A stretch of DNA of 63,229 nt, filler included, from Candidatus Aminicenantales bacterium (GTDB lineage Bacteria > Acidobacteriota > Aminicenantia > Aminicenantales > Saccharicenantaceae), in NCBI GenBank assembly GCA_049512315.1. It is 6 parts of 6 records of this genome, joined end to end, with 100 filler letters (N's around TTAATTAATTAA, not from the genome) between each part and the next. Parts side by side here need not be neighbours in the genome. Positions count along the whole stretch, not along the records: positions 49,097 to 58,352 come from JBEKXF010000059.1; 5 more parts are not named here. One strand, 5' to 3'. Position 1 is the first letter of the stretch. Each line of letters starts with the position of its first letter. Shown piece by piece: positions 52,301 to 58,300 of this stretch. The position numbers were made by a program.

Positions 52301-55300
52301 ACCTGGCCTCCGCTGCGGCCGGGGCGATCTACCATGTGTGCAAGGGGATGGCGTCCAGGCAACCCACGCCTGGGCTCGTCGTCCAGAGGCACGAGCACCC
52401 GGACCTCCAGCGGGAAAAGGAGCTGGCGGCAAGGGAAGAGTTGGAGGACTGCAAAAGGGAGATGATGGACTACATCAATGAAGCCGAAGGCGGGGTCGGC
52501 ATTCTTCTTAAACCCAGACGCTAATTTATCCCCTTAAAACGCATTTAAAGCCCATCCCGAGCTAAAAATTAAAAAGATAAAACCCTACTTTTGACTGGAT
52601 CAGTTTTGAGGTGAGGCTCCCTCTTCAAATACGGCACCACGTTGACCCGGCGGGGCCAGGGCGAAAATCTTCCTATTCGTCCTTGTCGGTTTTCATAGAA
52701 AAATCGAGTGCTGCGAGCTTTCCCGTCGCGGATTCCTTAATGAACTCTTCGACCTTCGCCTTGATGGCGTCGCGGACCTCACGTGTCTTTGCGAGCCGCT
52801 CCTCGCGCGTCCCTGTGAATGAGGCAGGGTCGGGAAAGCTCCAAATGAGAGTCCGGGTAATCCCAGGGAAGGTCGGACAGCGCTGGGCGGCCTCTGTGTC
52901 GCAGACGGCAATGACATAACCGAAGAGGACGCCGCTCTTATAGACATCAAAGACGCTCTTGGTCGAATTTTGCGAAATGTCGATTCCGACCTCTTTTATG
53001 ACCTCGACGGCCAGAGGATTGAGTGTGCCCGGTTCGAGTCCGGCGCTCGATGCCACGAACCGTCCTCCGGCCCGGGTATTGAGGAATGCTTCAGCCATCT
53101 GGCTTCTGGCGCTGTTGTGGACGCAGACGAACAACACACGGACGGCATTGCCATTCACGACCATCGTTGGCTCCTTCCGCAGAATATCGTCGGCATTAGG
53201 GGATTCCGATGCCGGGTCAGACCGCCGATTCCGCGCTTTCCATAAGCCGGCTTATACGGTCGGCGAGGTTGTTTTGGTTACGGAGGTAGAGCGAGCCGGG
53301 GATCCCAGAGTCCGATAGCGCTTCGATGGCCTTGCGAAGGAGCCACCGGGAGATCCCCGGGGCGTTCGGGCGATCCTGCGCCACCTGTCTGATGATCCCG
53401 TCGAGGATCGCACTTCCTGTGTCTATCGTAAGGGAATCCTTGGCGTGGAGCCAGCTCGCTTTATCGAATAGATTCCGGATGCGGACGGACGTCTCAGCCT
53501 TGAGGCGGGGAAGGGTTAAATCGTCCGGACAAAGGTGGGATTCCCTGGACGCGATCCGGCCGAAAAACGTCTCGAAGGAATTGCCGCGGGCCAGGCTGAA
53601 GGCCCTGCCGATGTCTCCGACGTGGCTGTCGGTCGCCGCCACGATGCCCTTCGACTTGGCGTTCGCCAGGCGGAGAGCTTGGGCGTTGATGCGGCTGGTT
53701 CGGCCCATGTTGTATTCGAGGACCGGGAAGAGGTCGGCGATCTCGAGGATGGCTCGCAGATTTGGCGTCTCCTCCGGCTCGTGCCAGAAGGGATGATTGA
53801 ACACGAAGGGGAGGCCTTCGTCCCGGAGGTACGTGGTCAGGTCCACGATGTCCCGGCCCGTCCGGGCGAGCTTCTGGATCTCCCGGAATTGGCCGGGATT
53901 GAGAGTGTAGACGTTAATGTGGATGGTGTGGCCCACGTTTCTGGTGTCGAGGATCCTGACCTCGACGGCCGGGACGAGGCCTTCGCGCGTCCAACCGACC
54001 TGGTCATAGGCGGCCATCGTATCGTGGTCCGTGAAGGCGACGTAGCTCATGCCCATCCGGCGGGCTTTTTGATAGAGAACCATAGGGTCGACCTGCCGGG
54101 TCGGGATGACATCATAGGAATGGAGCGTGTGAACATGAAGGTCCGCCGCCTGCCACCCGCCGGCCAGCAGCGTCTGGGCCTGCTTGGCGTTTAAGACCTT
54201 GGGCTCTCGCCCGTTGTCGGTTAGAGATGTACTCATGCTATTCACGCCATATTATCGCCCCGCTGCGTTAAGGGTGAATGAAGAAACGGTTAATTCTTGA
54301 TGAAGTCCGTCCTAACCAAGAATTAACCATCCCTTTATCGAAAACTCATGCGCCTCCGCTATAAAAGAGATGATGAAAACGCTTCTCCTCGTCCTGCTTT
54401 CCCTGTCCGGCTTCGTGTTATTCATTTTCACGGCTTTTACGGTCGCCTACCGGCGGGGCAAAAAGACCCCGGCGGCGGGAGCCGGCGAATACCCCTTCGT
54501 CAGCCTCCTCAAACCGCTTAAGAACGCCGACGACGACATGGCCGCCAACCTGGAATCGTTTTATCATCTCGATTACCCCGCCTACGAAGTCCTATTCGCC
54601 GTCGACGATCTTCGCGACCCGTGCGTCGGTCTCCTGAAGGACCTTCAGGCCCGATACCCCCTGATCCCCACGGCGATTATCGCGACCGGCCATCCGCCCT
54701 TCGAGAATCCCAAGGTCCACAAGTTGGCTCGGCTCGAATCCAAGAGCCGAGGCCGGCTATTTTGGACGACGGACTCCAATATCCGTGTCGCTCCCGACGC
54801 TCTCCGCCGGCTCGTCGACGAATACTTAGCTCACGACGCCAAGGTCGTGTTCTCGCCCATCCGGGGGTCGTCGAGCCGGACCTTCGGCAGCCTCATGGAG
54901 AACGCGGGCCTCAACTTCTTCACCTCCGGGAGCATTCTCGCTTCCTGGTTCCTGGGACGTCAGGCCATCCTTGTCGGGAAGTCCATCCTCATCGAGCGCG
55001 CGGCTCTGGCCACGTTCGGGGGCTTCGGCTACTTCAAGGACTACTTAGCCGAGGACTTCCTCTTGGGCGAGGCGTTCATCAAGAGCGGCTTCCGTGTGAC
55101 GACCAATTGCACCTGGGTGACCAACGTCAACCAAACGGCTACTCCACGGAGCTTTTTCAAACGGATGTCCCGCTGGGCCAAGCTCCGCTTTAACCTCCGG
55201 CGGCCCGTCTATCTCCTGGAGGTCCTTCTCAATCCCATCGTCCTCGCCCTGGGCGGCGTAGCCGCCTTCGGAGGGATGGGCTTGATCATCCTAGCCGTTA

Positions 55301-58300
55301 CGGTCGGGGTCAAGATTCTCCTCGAATACCTGAACTTCCTATTCATTAATCCCGAGGACTGTCGCCATCTCGCGAATCATCTTCTCTTCCCCGCCGTCGT
55401 GGTTGCCAAGGACCTTATTCTCTTCGTCGTTTACTTCACGCCCTTCTTCAGCCGCCACGTTGAATGGCGGGGCGGCCGGGTCGCTATCGGTAAAAATACC
55501 TTGATTCAGATCCCGGCCAACGTGGATAATCTCGTTTATGAGGGCGCATGACAAGGCGTGGGTCGTCACCGTCCTCATGGGCCTGGGCCATCTTCGGGCG
55601 GCCTACCCCCTGCGCGGGCTCACTCATGAGGGGATTATCGTATACGGCTCGCGCCGCTCGACGCCCGCACCGGAATACAGAATCTGGAGGCGGCTGCGCC
55701 GTCTCTACTACAGCACGTCGAAAGCCGGCGCCGTTCCCCTCATCGGAAAGGCTTTGCTCGGTCTTGCTCTGGCCGTTCAGCGCATACCGCCCTATTACCC
55801 AAAGGCTGACCAGTCCCGTCCGAACTTCGCCGTGAAGTACCTCAAGCGCCTGATCAAAAGGCGGGGGCTCTGCTCGGGCCTTCGGGATAGGATTGGGGCT
55901 GCGCCCCATCCGGTCATTCATACGTTTTATGCGACCGCAATCGCCCTGGAGGCCCTCGAAAAGTCAGCGCCAGACCCGCGGCGGGACAATTACCTGCTCA
56001 TCTGTGACGCGGACTTCAACCGGGTCTGGGTTCCCGAGGATCCTAGAGCGAGCCGGATCCGTTATCTGGCGCCCTGTACCCAGGTGCGCCGCAGGCTCGC
56101 GGCGTACGGTGTCCCCGAAGAGGCCATCCTCATGACGGGCTTCCCGTTGCCCAAGGAGAACATCGGCTCGGAAACGGGACTCGAGGTCCTCAAGGGCGAT
56201 CTATTCGACCGCTTGCTCCGGCTGGACCCGGCCGGCAAGTTCTTTTCCTATCATGAGAGGTCCGTGCTCGGCTGGCTCGACAGGGACTCCGTGCCCGCAA
56301 ACCGCCCCCGCCATTTCACGGTGATGTTCGCCATCGGCGGCGCCGGCGCCCAAACTGAGATGGTCGAGAAAATCCTGGCGGGCCTCGGGGACCGCATCCG
56401 GAAGGACGAGGTCCGCCTGACGCTCTCCTGCGGGATTCAAAAAAAGGTCTTCGAGCGCGTCCTTGGGTTTATCAGCGAAGCGGTCCTGCGCGGCGAGATC
56501 GACCGGGGCCTCCAGATCGTCTACGACCAGGACGTCTACGCTTATCTCGATCGCTTCAACGCCCACCTTCGCCGGACCGACGTCCTCTGGACCAAACCCA
56601 GCGAGCTCGCATTCTATTGCGGCTTGGGACTGCCCGTCCTGATAGCCGATCCGATCGGAGCTCATGAGGAGCTCAATAAGCGTTGGCTCCAGGAGATTCA
56701 TGCCGGTGTCATCCCCCCTGGGCCCTTGGAGGCGTGCGGGGAATGGCTCTTCGACCTCAGGGAGGACGGGCGTCTGGCTGAGGCGGCATGGGACGGATTC
56801 CTCAAGGCCCGCAAGCTCGGAACGTATAAGATTGAGCGCCTTATCCGGACTGGCGAGTTCAAGGAGGGGGCTACGCCCCTGGAGCTTTGAATTGACAATC
56901 CTCCTCGTTATCCTCATCGTTCTCGTAGCATTGGCGTTCGCCTTCACCAACGGCATGCATGACGCGGCCAACTCAATCGCCACCATCGTCTCGACTCAGG
57001 TCCTGAGCCCGCGGCAGGCCGTCGCCTGGGCGGCCTTTTTCAACTTCGTCGCCTTCCTCATCTTCGGGACGGCCGTGGCCCAGACTATCGGCGCGGGGAT
57101 GATCAATACGTCCGCTGTGACGCCCATCGTCGTCTTAGCCGGGCTGCTCGGGGCGACTTGCTGGAATATCCTGACCTGGCTTCTCGGTCTTCCGACGAGT
57201 TCCTCGCATGCCCTCATTGGTGCCTATGCCGGTGCCGCGATGGCCAAGGCCGGGGTGGGCGTCATCATCGCCCACGGCTGGCTGAAGACGGTTATTTTTA
57301 TTTTCCTGGCCCCGTTACTCGGCCTTGTCCTTGGCGTTGTCTTCATCTGGATCACGGCCCGGATCGGCCAGAAGAAGCAGCCCGCCGAAATCAACCCGTG
57401 GTTCCGGAAACTCACACTCCTTTCTTCCTGCCTTTACAGCCTCGGCCACGGCGGCAACGACGCTCAGAAAACCGCGGGCGTCATCGCCAGCCTCGTTTTC
57501 TCGGCGGGCTATATGAAGACCTTTCATATCCCCTTTTGGATCGTCCTCAGCGCCTATGCGGCCATCGCCCTGGGGACTCTGTCCGGCGGCTGGCGGATCG
57601 TTAAAACGATAGGGCAGAAGATTACGAAGCTCCACCCGATTGACGGCTTCTGCGCCGAAACGGCTAGCGCCGCGAGCATCTTCCTGGCCACTTACATGGG
57701 CGTTCCCGTCAGCACAACACATGTCATCACGGGGGCGATCTCGGGGGTGGGGGCGACCAAGCGCCTCTCGGCCGTCCGCTGGGGAGTAACCCTCAAAATT
57801 GTCTGGGCCTGGATTCTCACAATTCCCGCGGCAGGCCTCGTCGGCGGAGCATTCTATCTCCTATTCCAGCTCATCTTCAACATCCCGGCCTGACCTGCTC
57901 TCCCGAAATCCCGATAGCCTACGGTCCTAGTAGGAATGATGTTTTTCGCATCCCGGCCGTTATCTGCAGCTTGCTGACGAACATTCTTGTGTGCTTTCCG
58001 GAAGCGGTCTGAGACGATAGACCTGGGAGGAGAAAAAATGACCAAGAAGAAAACGGCGAAGGTCGTCGAGGCCGTCCGCGCAACGGTCCCGGCAGGGACG
58101 GAGACCAAGTCAAAAACGGCGGAGACTAAGGCCGAGGCAAAAGTCGCCTCTAAGCCGGCCAGGGGAAAAGCCGCCAGGGAGGCCAAGATCCAGGGCCAGG
58201 TCGACGCCAACGCGGCCGCGATCCTCAAGACCCACGACGAGGGCAAGTCGGTCAAGGAGCTCTACAAGATGTTCGGGACCAACAAGGGCCTCTTCTGCGA

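Follow-up and report, generated by a model that had tools for sequence, protein, structure and literature searches.

A putative Pho-controlled lipid-remodelling module with a GT21–DUF6938 glycosyltransferase pair in an uncultured Aminicenantales bacterium

The uncultured Candidatus Aminicenantales bacterium GCA_049512315.1 (genome 96.6% complete) probably swaps phosphorus-containing membrane lipids for sugar lipids, quite possibly ceramide-based as in plants and animals, using an enzyme of a previously uncharacterised family, DUF6938. The genes lie on JBEKXF010000059.1, in the window (the whole stretch of 63,229 nucleotides analysed). A genome-wide survey's note had read them as a Pho-box-controlled route to phosphorus-free glycosphingolipids. 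That reading is partly supported: Pho control, DUF6938 as a glycosyltransferase and a glycolipid lacking phosphorus hold up, and the glycosphingolipid is plausible and slightly favoured.

Gene layout and predicted phosphate control

On the minus strand, the gene for a PHP-family metallo-phosphoesterase (53217–54236, ATG at 54236, 339 residues; PF02811, E 8e-5) is followed, 52 nt downstream, by one for an ArsC-type arsenate reductase or LMW phosphatase (52673–53164, 163 residues; PF01451, E 7.5e-14). Divergent from the PHP gene, on the plus strand, are a GT21 membrane glycosyltransferase (54370–55551, 393 residues; PF13506, E 2e-31), a DUF6938 protein (55538–56890, 450 residues; PF22053, E 4.7e-17) and a Pit-family phosphate transporter (56892–57893, 333 residues; PF01384, E 9e-92). 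The GT21 and DUF6938 reading frames share 14 nt, and Pit, with its TTG start at 56892, 1 nt past the DUF6938 stop, is translationally coupled to DUF6938. Pfam profiles, the sequence and a model of the PHP protein agree with the genes, orientations and families given by the survey, including a PHP phosphoesterase, its fold taken from the model, opposite the GT21 side.

Among 80 genome loci with DUF6938, GT21 is present in 56, a PHP gene in 16 (one of them a distant PHP–GT4 fusion), and a Pit, Pst, PhoU, DUF47 or porin gene lies near 22. Pit itself is found in 7 of the 80 and takes the same place after DUF6938 in the metagenome loci L194, L197 and L198; the survey counted it in the unit, of which it is an optional member. 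The ArsC protein, which scores 108 bits against TIGR02691 (under the cut-off), is probably an accessory member on the PHP transcript; an ArsC-like gene occurs in 11 of 79 PHP loci.

Both Pho-box-like arrays, each of four 11-bp repeats and mirror images of one another, sit between the PHP gene and GT21. The PHP-side array (54265–54308, minus strand) is followed by a -10-like GATAAT at 54256–54251, and the GT21-side array (54308–54351, plus strand) by a -10-like TATAAA at 54360–54365. The GT21 start codon is 4–7 nt further on, a distance suggesting that the transcript is probably leaderless. When a motif was derived de novo, using relatives alone, a period of 11 was best among 9–13 (13.7 vs 7.0–9.3). 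The motif used for ranking came from 27 distant relatives, and the two loci with homology to the pst promoter were kept out of its training; genome-wide, it placed the porin-pst-phoBR promoter first, the PHP promoter second and the GT21 promoter seventh. None of 15 column-shuffled motifs ranked any of these three first, and 10 of the 15 put none of them in the top 200; the score of the GT21-side array was reached by 0 of 200 shuffles.

Conservation of the periodic array upstream in relatives, also proposed by the survey, is borne out by a leave-one-out test, in which 39 of 52 GT21 upstream regions exceeded all 40 shuffles and the motif was absent from 13. The PHP-side array is present in all ten relatives with the divergent layout, and the motif in none of 20 DUF6938-first loci. 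The strict repeat (C/T)TAA(C/T)-N6-(C/T)TAA(C/T), described before as rare in front of genes, occurs 17 times genome-wide (other spacings 19, 13, 11 and 12); four occurrences do lie at most 250 nt from an ORF start, but the strict pattern alone is within chance. The pst operon of this genome, porin-pstSCAB-phoU-phoBR, encodes a PhoB-type regulator at its end, and its promoter has in common with the module 11-bp periodic half-sites upstream of the -10 element. At L038 and L040 the GT21–DUF6938 pair heads a pst operon. Predicted Pho control of the module is well supported by the motif, and binding of the arrays by PhoB is very likely.

Enzymes and proposed mechanism

The GT21 protein scores 109 bits against PF13506 (cut-off 21.7), and its hydropathy shows one hydrophobic segment at the N-terminus and about three towards the C-terminus. 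The catalytic motif set of GT21 enzymes is D, D-x-(D/N/G), E-D and (Q/R)xxRW; here, D135, E228-D229 and R265-x-x-R268-W269 do not vary among 18 sequences and line up with UGCG. The survey had called the protein closest to animal ceramide glucosyltransferase, which is true among solved structures only: human UGCG matches with E 8e-34 and 120 bits, and bacterial GT21s score higher (170, 138, 134 and 129 bits). This likeness is not discriminating, since human UGCG is matched just as well (124.6 bits) by a bacterial GT21 of the Pgt-like kind. The window GT21 falls in a clade of its own (100% support), distinct from both the HpnI-like and the Pgt-like enzymes. In quick trees, built without UGCG, it and the Pgt-like GT21s fall in separate clades (99–100% SH-aLRT), the four "Pgt-like" rows having been chosen by organism and plcP-like context rather than by a characterised Pgt sequence. 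GT21 would be the first-sugar enzyme, with ceramide or diacylglycerol as acceptor.

In VIA-align, the DUF6938 model (pLDDT 87.9) matches MGD1 (Z 22.6, rmsd 3.6, 290 aligned) and MurG (Z 21.4) best, with the next match at 17.9, and the family's sequence profile finds only UgtP (E 6.6e-19), MGD1 (8.7e-6) and MurG (0.002). The GT28 assignment is based on these two results and not on the Foldseek ranking cited by the survey, in which MGD1 does occur, but at rank 11, behind ten epimerases. G-x-G-H, the catalytic histidine loop of GT28 enzymes, E-x-x-N, which binds the sugar, and a TD motif all line up with GT28 enzymes; among 87 sequences, G15, G17, H18 and E377 are found in at least 90% and N380 in 100%, aligning with UgtP and MGD1. 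The window protein itself has no PF06925 or PF04101 match above cut-off, and scores 24 bits against PRK13609 (cut-off 500). In agreement with the GT-B glycosyltransferase announced earlier, sequence and model support DUF6938 as a soluble or peripheral, GT28-like lipid glycosyltransferase, closest to UgtP and MGD1. Fusions of GT21 and DUF6938 (3 of 80 loci, and P0122) and the 7 of 80 loci where DUF6938 precedes a true MGDG synthase make it fit as a partner of first-sugar enzymes; it is the probable second-sugar enzyme.

For the PHP protein, of which the database holds an identical 339-residue entry, the metal-ligand motifs D32-x-H34-x-H36, D70-H71-D72, E92, H106, H148 and D203-x-H205 are invariant in 26 sequences, and the best structural matches of the model (pLDDT 87) are PHP folds (Z 17.5–15.9). 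An identity as PlcP, a calcineurin-like or LpxH-like metallophosphoesterase, was rejected in favour of this fold, and the genome yielded no PlcP-like gene. No GT21 locus combines a close PHP gene (15 loci) with a calcineurin/LpxH-like phosphoesterase (11 loci). The PHP enzyme is a candidate lipid phosphodiesterase or phosphatase standing in for PlcP, with its substrate suggested by genomic context; that it acts on lipids is reasonably probable.

Gene layout, families, folds, the motif with its ranking and the co-occurrence patterns described below are the direct observations behind the following mechanism. Under phosphate shortage, a PhoB-type regulator from the pst operon would bind both arrays and turn both arms on. 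In the left arm, the PHP enzyme would remove phosphate-containing head groups from membrane lipids, PlcP's job elsewhere, and ArsC may deal with arsenate entering alongside phosphate. In the right arm, GT21 would transfer the first hexose from a UDP-sugar to a lipid backbone, most likely ceramide supplied by the products of the genome's Spt-, bCerS- and CerR-like genes, DUF6938 would attach the second hexose to the GT21 product, and Pit would bring phosphate in. A phosphorus-free di-hexosyl lipid would thus replace phospholipids. A glycolipid product is highly probable, and the order GT21 then DUF6938 fairly probable; ceramide is somewhat favoured as the GT21 acceptor. Ceramide and sequential action jointly, within a Pho lipid-remodelling module, make a tentative proposal that falls just short of an even chance.

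Ceramide and other possible acceptors

As the survey had listed, Spt-like, CerR-like and bCerS-like genes are found in this genome. The Spt-like gene fits SerpalmtaseCFB best (517 bits, cut-off 640; the genome's own Kbl 306) and is adjoined by an SDR gene, and there are two homologues (38% and 29%) of a GNAT protein found beside spt in three other phyla; the SDR and the GNAT homologues are labelled CerR-like and bCerS-like on synteny and general background rather than on comparison with the characterised Caulobacter proteins. An inositol-phosphate synthase gene next to a CDP-alcohol phosphotransferase is also present. A spt homologue need not mean sphingolipid production (abstract of PMC8895605).

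A Spt-like gene of at least 440 bits is found in 39 of 43 pair-bearing genomes, and 2 more have one broken across two contigs; the remaining 2 carry bCerS-like genes. Since Spt-like genes are lineage-wide in Aminicenantia (17 of 17 genomes without DUF6938 also have one) and Elusimicrobiota (72 of 81), genomes of these groups are uninformative. What does carry information is co-occurrence without linkage in Spt-poor phyla. In Fibrobacterota, all 8 genomes with this GT21 have a Spt-like gene, vs 2 of 143 others; within the Fibrobacterota class that holds G306 the counts are 8 of 8 vs 2 of 64, and in the G340 phylum they are 3 of 3 vs 8 of 28. These counts are inflated by kinship, the informative genomes being related (two GT21 subclades in Fibrobacterota). 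In the Spt-poor phyla the two genes lie on different contigs, and within the G306 class a bCerS-like gene occurs in all five positive members examined and in none of the five negative ones. The survey's glycosphingolipid route is plausible and slightly favoured through this unlinked co-occurrence, while UGCG likeness and the spt gene of the genome itself do not discriminate.

In the Atlas, the clusters nearest to the PHP family are 66–84% archaeal, which counts against ceramide, as ceramide is not expected in archaea. In G266 (100% complete), which has a coupled GT21–DUF6938 pair and a divergent PHP–GT4 gene, the only oxoamine synthase is of the Kbl type, and the query used gave no bCerS-like match; the GT21 of this genome is basal, outside the core clade, and without the 11-bp motif, so G266 weakens the ceramide reading rather than refuting it. 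Spt-like genes are also lacking in several DUF6938-only genomes (G344, G348, G358, G359 and G361).

Diacylglycerol as the GT21 acceptor is possible but unlikely, and slightly more doubtful still is a full analogue of PlcP–Pgt in the same Pho module, in which PHP would free diacylglycerol and GT21 and DUF6938 would form its mono-hexosyl and di-hexosyl derivatives. It would agree with the preference of Pgt, a Pho-box GT21, for diacylglycerol (excerpts of PMC3972451 and PMC8231724), with plcP directly upstream of such enzymes (excerpts of PMC4796936; plasmid loci L135 and L136), with an LpxH/PlcP-like gene immediately upstream of the pair at L071, with UgtP and MGD1, the closest solved relatives of DUF6938, being diacylglycerol enzymes by their PDB names, and with the G266 pair. 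Against it, core-clade GT21 is found only in Spt-like- or bCerS-like-positive genomes, even where these genes are rare and unlinked, and the clade of the window GT21 does not include the Pgt-like group.

It is improbable that the two enzymes act in parallel, GT21 making hexosylceramide and DUF6938 separately glycosylating PHP-released diacylglycerol, so that both lipid classes are converted. GT21 does track Spt-like genes, DUF6938 can be found with no GT21 beside it (24 of 80 loci) or in genomes lacking Spt-like genes, and its closest relatives work on diacylglycerol; however, natural GT21–DUF6938 fusions exist, and the true MGDG synthase partner would be redundant if DUF6938 made mono-hexosyl-diacylglycerol.

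A GT-B-fold UDP-sugar epimerase, or a soluble-acceptor transferase, supplying or modifying the GT21 substrate is a very unlikely role for DUF6938. The Foldseek top ten are UDP-GlcNAc 2-epimerases (E 1e-7 to 9e-7), the nucleotide-binding helix reads TKPSEL where UgtP and MGD1 are glycine-rich and two residues longer, and 10 Saccharicenans-type loci and 4 from spirochaetes have glucosylglycerate genes upstream; but the best epimerase in VIA-align (Z 17.2) is well below MGD1 and MurG, the profile and aligned motifs point to GT28 enzymes, and 25 of 87 members match PF06925 (MGDG synthase; E<=0.01, best 1.7e-5) vs 2 of 87 an epimerase. The hopanoid alternative raised by the survey is largely refuted already and scarcely credible: although HpnI (TIGR03472) is the best NCBIfam model for GT21 (181.7 bits, E 1.8e-53), the cut-off is 310 bits, Pgt-like proteins score similarly (183, 200), the HpnI-like clade is separate, and squalene-hopene cyclase (TIGR01507) was matched neither in this genome nor in five of five other pair-bearing genomes.

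Comparison with known systems

By analogy, the proposed ceramide module would function as PlcP–Pgt and Caulobacter Sgt1/Sgt2 do, but is built from other parts. The closest precedent, left out by the survey, is the Pho-box GT21 Pgt, which favours diacylglycerol over ceramide (excerpts of PMC3972451). The PlcP–Pgt operons (Pgt of Agrobacterium tumefaciens and Mesorhizobium loti; marine plcP neighbourhood types 3 and 5) likewise combine a Pho-box GT21, the Pho box being found upstream of the window GT21 at motif level, with a metallo-phosphoesterase neighbour and a phosphorus-free glycolipid product, predicted here (excerpts of PMC3972451, PMC8231724 and PMC4796936). Unlike them, the window GT21 is in a separate clade and co-occurs with ceramide-pathway genes, the phosphoesterase is PHP-fold instead of a calcineurin-like PlcP, and a GT28-like DUF6938 is added, coupled or fused.

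In Caulobacter crescentus, adjacent glycosyltransferases, Sgt1 and Sgt2, glycosylate ceramide sequentially under phosphate starvation (GSL-2; excerpts of PMC6445935), a precedent that makes such a reaction plausible here, where two glycosyltransferases are also adjacent in a predicted phosphate-starvation setting and the ceramide acceptor is putative. Both Sgt enzymes are GT4, whereas the window pair, GT21 and GT28-like, has different folds. The window pair would form beta linkages, and the GT4 enzymes Sgt1 and Sgt2 alpha linkages. In phosphate-starved plants, NPC4 degrades GIPC and glucosylceramide increases (excerpts of PMC9888252); were GT21 to act on ceramide and PHP to cleave a phosphosphingolipid, the module would follow the same logic, with an unrelated phosphoesterase and phosphosphingolipids that are hypothetical in this organism.

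With eukaryotic UGCG, the window GT21 shares the family, the catalytic motifs and an R-M-x-R-W-x-K-L-R-x-N stretch, but at only 120 bits, no higher than for the Pgt-like protein, and bacterial GT21s are closer. DUF6938 differs from UgtP/YpfP and MGD1 in its longer inter-domain insert, its shortened nucleotide-binding helix and an identity of about 17%, below family cut-offs; like the GT28 enzymes UgtP/YpfP, MGD1 and MurG, it combines the GT-B fold (Z 22.6 and 21.4) with the N-terminal G-x-G-H, TD and E-x-x-N.

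Layout and distribution of the module

The window joins six contigs through N spacers. In the source genome (3.55 Mb, 96.6% complete) the module lies on one of them, contig C59 (window 49097-58352), where the genes for ArsC (52673-53164) and the PHP phosphoesterase (53217-54236) on the minus strand face those for GT21 (54370-55551), the DUF6938 protein (55538-56890) and Pit (56892-57893) on the plus strand. The last three are translationally coupled, and all five together make up a divergent unit; the complete arrangement occurs again in metagenome loci L194, L197 and L198. Among the 80 best of the 576 confirmed genome loci gathered with a DUF6938 alignment, GT21 is present in 56, a phosphate-uptake gene in 22, Pit in seven and PHP in 16 (15 close relatives and one distant PHP-GT4 fusion). 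GT21 and DUF6938 form a single open reading frame in L046, L061 and L074 and in the relative protein P0122. Relatives that bear names are mainly Candidatus Aminicenantes.

The DUF6938 gene is patchily distributed: 19 of the phylum's 301 genomes have it, and it was not found in the sole same-genus genome searched. Contig C59 also bears an IS481 transposase (49708-50613) and a terminase-large-subunit-like gene (50914-52524), immediately to the left of the module; given these neighbours and the patchy distribution, the module may be mobile. The region has no RNA holder listed.

Several relatives carry further genes at these loci. In two Elusimicrobiota loci, L068 and L071, a gene which we take from its sequence to be ADP-glucose-pyrophosphorylase-like stands between GT21 and DUF6938. 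Two lineages unrelated to each other (L041, L047, L049, L052, L055, L057, L058, L060, L070 and L083; L086 and L088-L090) have glucosylglycerate-pathway genes, either GpgS-like plus GT2 or GT4 plus sucrose-phosphorylase-like, immediately upstream of the DUF6938 unit. A 234-residue protein with a signal-like N-terminus, matching no Pfam or NCBIfam family, is encoded inside the GT21-DUF6938-phosphoesterase operon of L081 (8311-9015) and of five other Fibrobacterota loci. The GT21 of genome G446 (C13:32624-33738) is in two frames, through a frameshift or an assembly error.

The glycosyltransferases and the phosphoesterase

On the evidence of sequence and of a structure model (pLDDT 87.9), the DUF6938 Pfam domain makes up the C-terminal half of what is probably a lipid glycosyltransferase of the GT28-like kind. 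In a VIA-align search of 48,161 chains, MGD1 (Z 22.6, rmsd 3.6, 290 aligned) and MurG (Z 21.4) lead, followed at 17.9 by the next best chain and at 17.2 by the best epimerase. A profile of 87 DUF6938 members matches UgtP (E 6.6e-19), MGD1 (8.7e-6) and MurG (0.002), with no further match below E 0.5; PF06925 is matched by 25 of the 87 and the epimerase family by two, the Atlas likewise indicates GT28 clusters, and a G-x-G-H loop, a TD motif and an E-x-x-N motif are conserved. Aligned with neighbouring MGDG synthases, the profile reaches 94% probability. The genome-wide survey's note had based a GT-B fold on Foldseek rows; MGD1 is indeed among them, at rank 11, but the first ten, which it left unmentioned, are UDP-GlcNAc 2-epimerases. 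Hydropathy analysis revealed no hydrophobic segment in the protein, and DUF6938 is named in no paper found in a search of mostly open-access texts.

The partner of the DUF6938 protein varies, being GT21 in those 56 loci, a true MGDG synthase in seven of the same best 80 of 576 and GT4 in L103, which suggests a second-sugar role. In loci of Ignavibacteria type (L091-L094, L099, L101 and L102) the true MGDG synthase follows DUF6938 and the upstream motif is lacking; pst genes and a metallophosphoesterase are often near.

The GT21 protein is, by sequence, a bona fide GT21. In quick trees that contain neither eukaryotic UGCG nor characterised Pgt, the 59 pair-associated GT21s fall into a single clade (100% SH-aLRT), distinct from the HpnI-like and Pgt-like sequences; its sister is the protein of a PHP-GT21 operon in L124.

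In the PHP protein all metal ligands are invariant, and its structure model matches PHP folds. Within GT21 loci the 15 close PHP proteins and the 11 calcineurin/LpxH-like phosphoesterases never occur together, and the source genome yielded no PlcP-like gene. The neighbours of the PHP family in 79 metagenome loci include GT21 (20), PhoU (11) and Pit (6), as well as pstS, GT4 and MJ1255-type glycosyltransferases. This context supports a PlcP-like role by analogy. The nearest Atlas clusters are mostly from methanogens, and such archaeal relatives argue that the PHP enzyme is not ceramide-specific. In L257-L268 the same family stands between pstS genes and a 330-residue AbrB-PhoU regulator, a layout that is presumably archaeal. 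Longer, fused PHP relatives were not found at E ≤ 1e-10, which is weak evidence, although L074 and L148 do have PHP-GT4 fusions. Such fusions (L074:1969-4488, L148:3087-4892), or PHP beside an Agt-like GT4 with Pit/PhoU (L243, L261), are a probable PHP-Agt counterpart of plcP-agt. No relevant paper linking PHP to glycolipids was found in the mostly open-access literature.

Mirror-image arrays between PHP and GT21

The 133-nt gap between PHP and GT21 contains two mirror-image arrays, each of four 11-bp units followed by a −10-like hexamer. The (C/T)TAA(C/T) N6 repeat described in the survey is present, but the strict pattern by itself is not above chance, with 17 occurrences genome-wide against 19, 13, 11 and 12 at other spacings; it was dropped as evidence in favour of a cross-species motif, learned unseeded from the regions upstream of GT21 in relatives (52 in all). 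Its best-fitting period is 11 (13.7, versus 7.0-9.3). For ranking, the motif was trained on 27 distant relatives, after removal of 12 close relatives, 11 motif-less regions and two loci with a pst-homologous promoter. Among promoters of the source genome it places that of porin-pstSCAB-phoU-phoBR (whose phoB lies on contig C1 at about 139.5-140.2 kb) first, PHP second and GT21 seventh; when motif-less regions are kept in training, the ranks are 1, 3 and 10. With 10 of 15 column-shuffled motifs, none of the three comes within the top 200. Since L038 and L040 have the pst promoter in common, circularity was considered; it was dismissed, the ranks being unchanged after removal of these two loci.

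In leave-one-out scoring, 39 of the 52 GT21 upstream regions exceed all shuffles. The PHP-side array is found in all ten relatives with the divergent layout and also ahead of four stand-alone PHP genes, while none of 20 loci with DUF6938 and no GT21 has an array. Arrays of this kind are known as PhoB sites; on this basis, and from the ranking shared with the pst promoter, we predict that PhoB binds here.

The −10-like hexamer lies 4-7 nt ahead of the GT21 start codons (window 54360-54375), likewise in relatives, a distance that suggests a leaderless transcript. Other 11-bp periodic arrays, a second family whose half-sites read CTTGACA, stand before genes for secreted proteins, one of them 5'-nucleotidase-like (C23:29780, C5:122240, C57:7848 on the minus strand, C54:10903, C32:24729, C28:41354, C27:1979 and C33:16984). 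These arrays, among ranks 3-22, were set aside as probably the motif of another regulator.

Acceptor lipid and likeness to known systems

We lean towards ceramide as the acceptor of GT21. The search for Spt-like genes covered 44 of the 56 GT21 loci, or 43 genomes; 39 have one of at least 440 bits, two have it split over contigs and two lack it, both of which carry bCerS-like genes. In Fibrobacterota, all eight GT21-positive genomes are among the ten Spt-like-positive of 151. In the class of G306, Spt-like genes occur in 8/8 GT21-positive genomes against 2/64 others, on different contigs from GT21, and bCerS-like genes in five of five positive and none of five negative members. The phylum of G340 has Spt-like genes in all three GT21 genomes (baseline 11/31). 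In Acidobacteriota, 18 of the 19 genomes with DUF6938 have them, against an overall figure of 67 of 301, a tally that includes the unpublished G024. As the genomes are kin, this co-occurrence represents perhaps five independent events, not dozens.

The source genome's own Spt-like gene was discarded as evidence, since all 17 Aminicenantia without the DUF gene have one; in Elusimicrobiota, too, presence is uninformative (baseline 72/81). Its best model is SerpalmtaseCFB, at 517 bits against a cut-off of 640 (Kbl of this genome, 306). An SDR adjoins it, and the genome has two homologues of a GNAT protein encoded next to spt in three other phyla; the bCerS and CerR labels used here for this genome are ones we assume from synteny. 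The synteny criteria are as in PMC11334938. Spt-like plus SDR (and GNAT) genes are near-universal in the sampled Aminicenantia and Elusimicrobiota (source genome C14:38293-40553; L163, L164 and L167), suggesting unrecognised sphingolipid producers. Searching plasmids for an spt-bCerS cluster with annotation yielded nothing useful, and the mostly open-access literature nothing relevant on Aminicenantes lipids.

Against ceramide count G266, a 100% complete genome in which a PHP-GT4 gene diverges from a coupled GT21-DUF6938 pair, with a Kbl-type enzyme only and no Spt-like or bCerS-like match, and five DUF6938-only genomes, which lack Spt-like genes. The G266 objection is softened by its GT21, which falls outside the core clade of pair-associated sequences and has no motif. 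According to PMC8895605, an spt homologue need not mean sphingolipid production.

Diacylglycerol is a distinctly less probable acceptor. Pgt, itself a GT21 behind a Pho box, takes both diacylglycerol and ceramide and prefers the former (PMC3972451, PMC8231724), and enzymes of its type frequently follow plcP (PMC4796936). The survey had argued for ceramide from likeness to UGCG, and the human enzyme is the only solved-structure match of the module's GT21 (120 bits); this argument fails, because a Pgt-like GT21 on a Fuscovulum plasmid, behind an LpxH/PlcP-like gene, scores 124.6 bits against it, and bacterial GT21s are closer than human UGCG to the module's enzyme. A hopanoid acceptor can be dismissed: the score of 182 bits with the HpnI model falls short of its 310-bit cut-off, and there is no shc match in the source genome or five other pair-bearing genomes.

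Phosphosphingolipids are possible in the source organism, since in its genome an inositol-1-phosphate synthase adjoins a CDP-alcohol phosphotransferase (C65:5252-6694), one of seven in all. Under low phosphate, PhoB would bind both arrays and the PHP enzyme would free phosphate-bearing head groups; the two glycosyltransferases, of established family, would act in turn, GT21 adding the first hexose and DUF6938 the second; Pit and ArsC, equally clear as families, would import phosphate and handle arsenate. Taken jointly, it is a tentative and rather improbable proposition that anaerobes of at least four phyla perform a plant-like, Pho-controlled swap of phosphosphingolipids for glycosphingolipids, with the PHP-fold protein as a new (sphingo)lipid phospholipase C, the GT21 clade as native bacterial glucosylceramide synthases, DUF6938 as a new GT28-related second-sugar family, and a beta-linked dihexosylceramide made by a pathway with no relation to Sgt1/Sgt2 of Caulobacter.

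Two results are new here: the test of the motif across species and the finding that GT21 co-occurs with ceramide genes. No description of the module was found in the main texts searched, mostly open-access; these organisms may already appear in gene lists that supplement PMC11334938 or PMC4796936. No relevant paper on UGCG structure or on a bacterial GT21 glucosylceramide synthase was found in the mostly open-access literature. Such a native synthase, if real, would bear on the origin of eukaryotic UGCG and on who makes glycosphingolipids in anoxic sediments; with diacylglycerol as acceptor, the module would still hold a new enzyme family within a known pathway, of moderate interest. Aminicenantia and Chitinivibrionia-type bacteria gain a Pho-box motif.

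That glycolipids take the place of phospholipids when phosphate runs short is known, yet the parts described so far (PlcP, Agt, Pgt and Sgt1/2) miss these anaerobic lineages. The module offers candidates for three gaps: the function of DUF6938, a substitute for PlcP with a PHP fold and, perhaps, a GT21 that serves bacteria as a glucosylceramide synthase of their own. It would work like PlcP-Pgt, or like the Caulobacter Sgt1/Sgt2 system (PMC6445935), yet is a member of neither. Plants swap GIPC for glucosylceramide (PMC9888252), a possible parallel if the source organism makes phosphosphingolipids.
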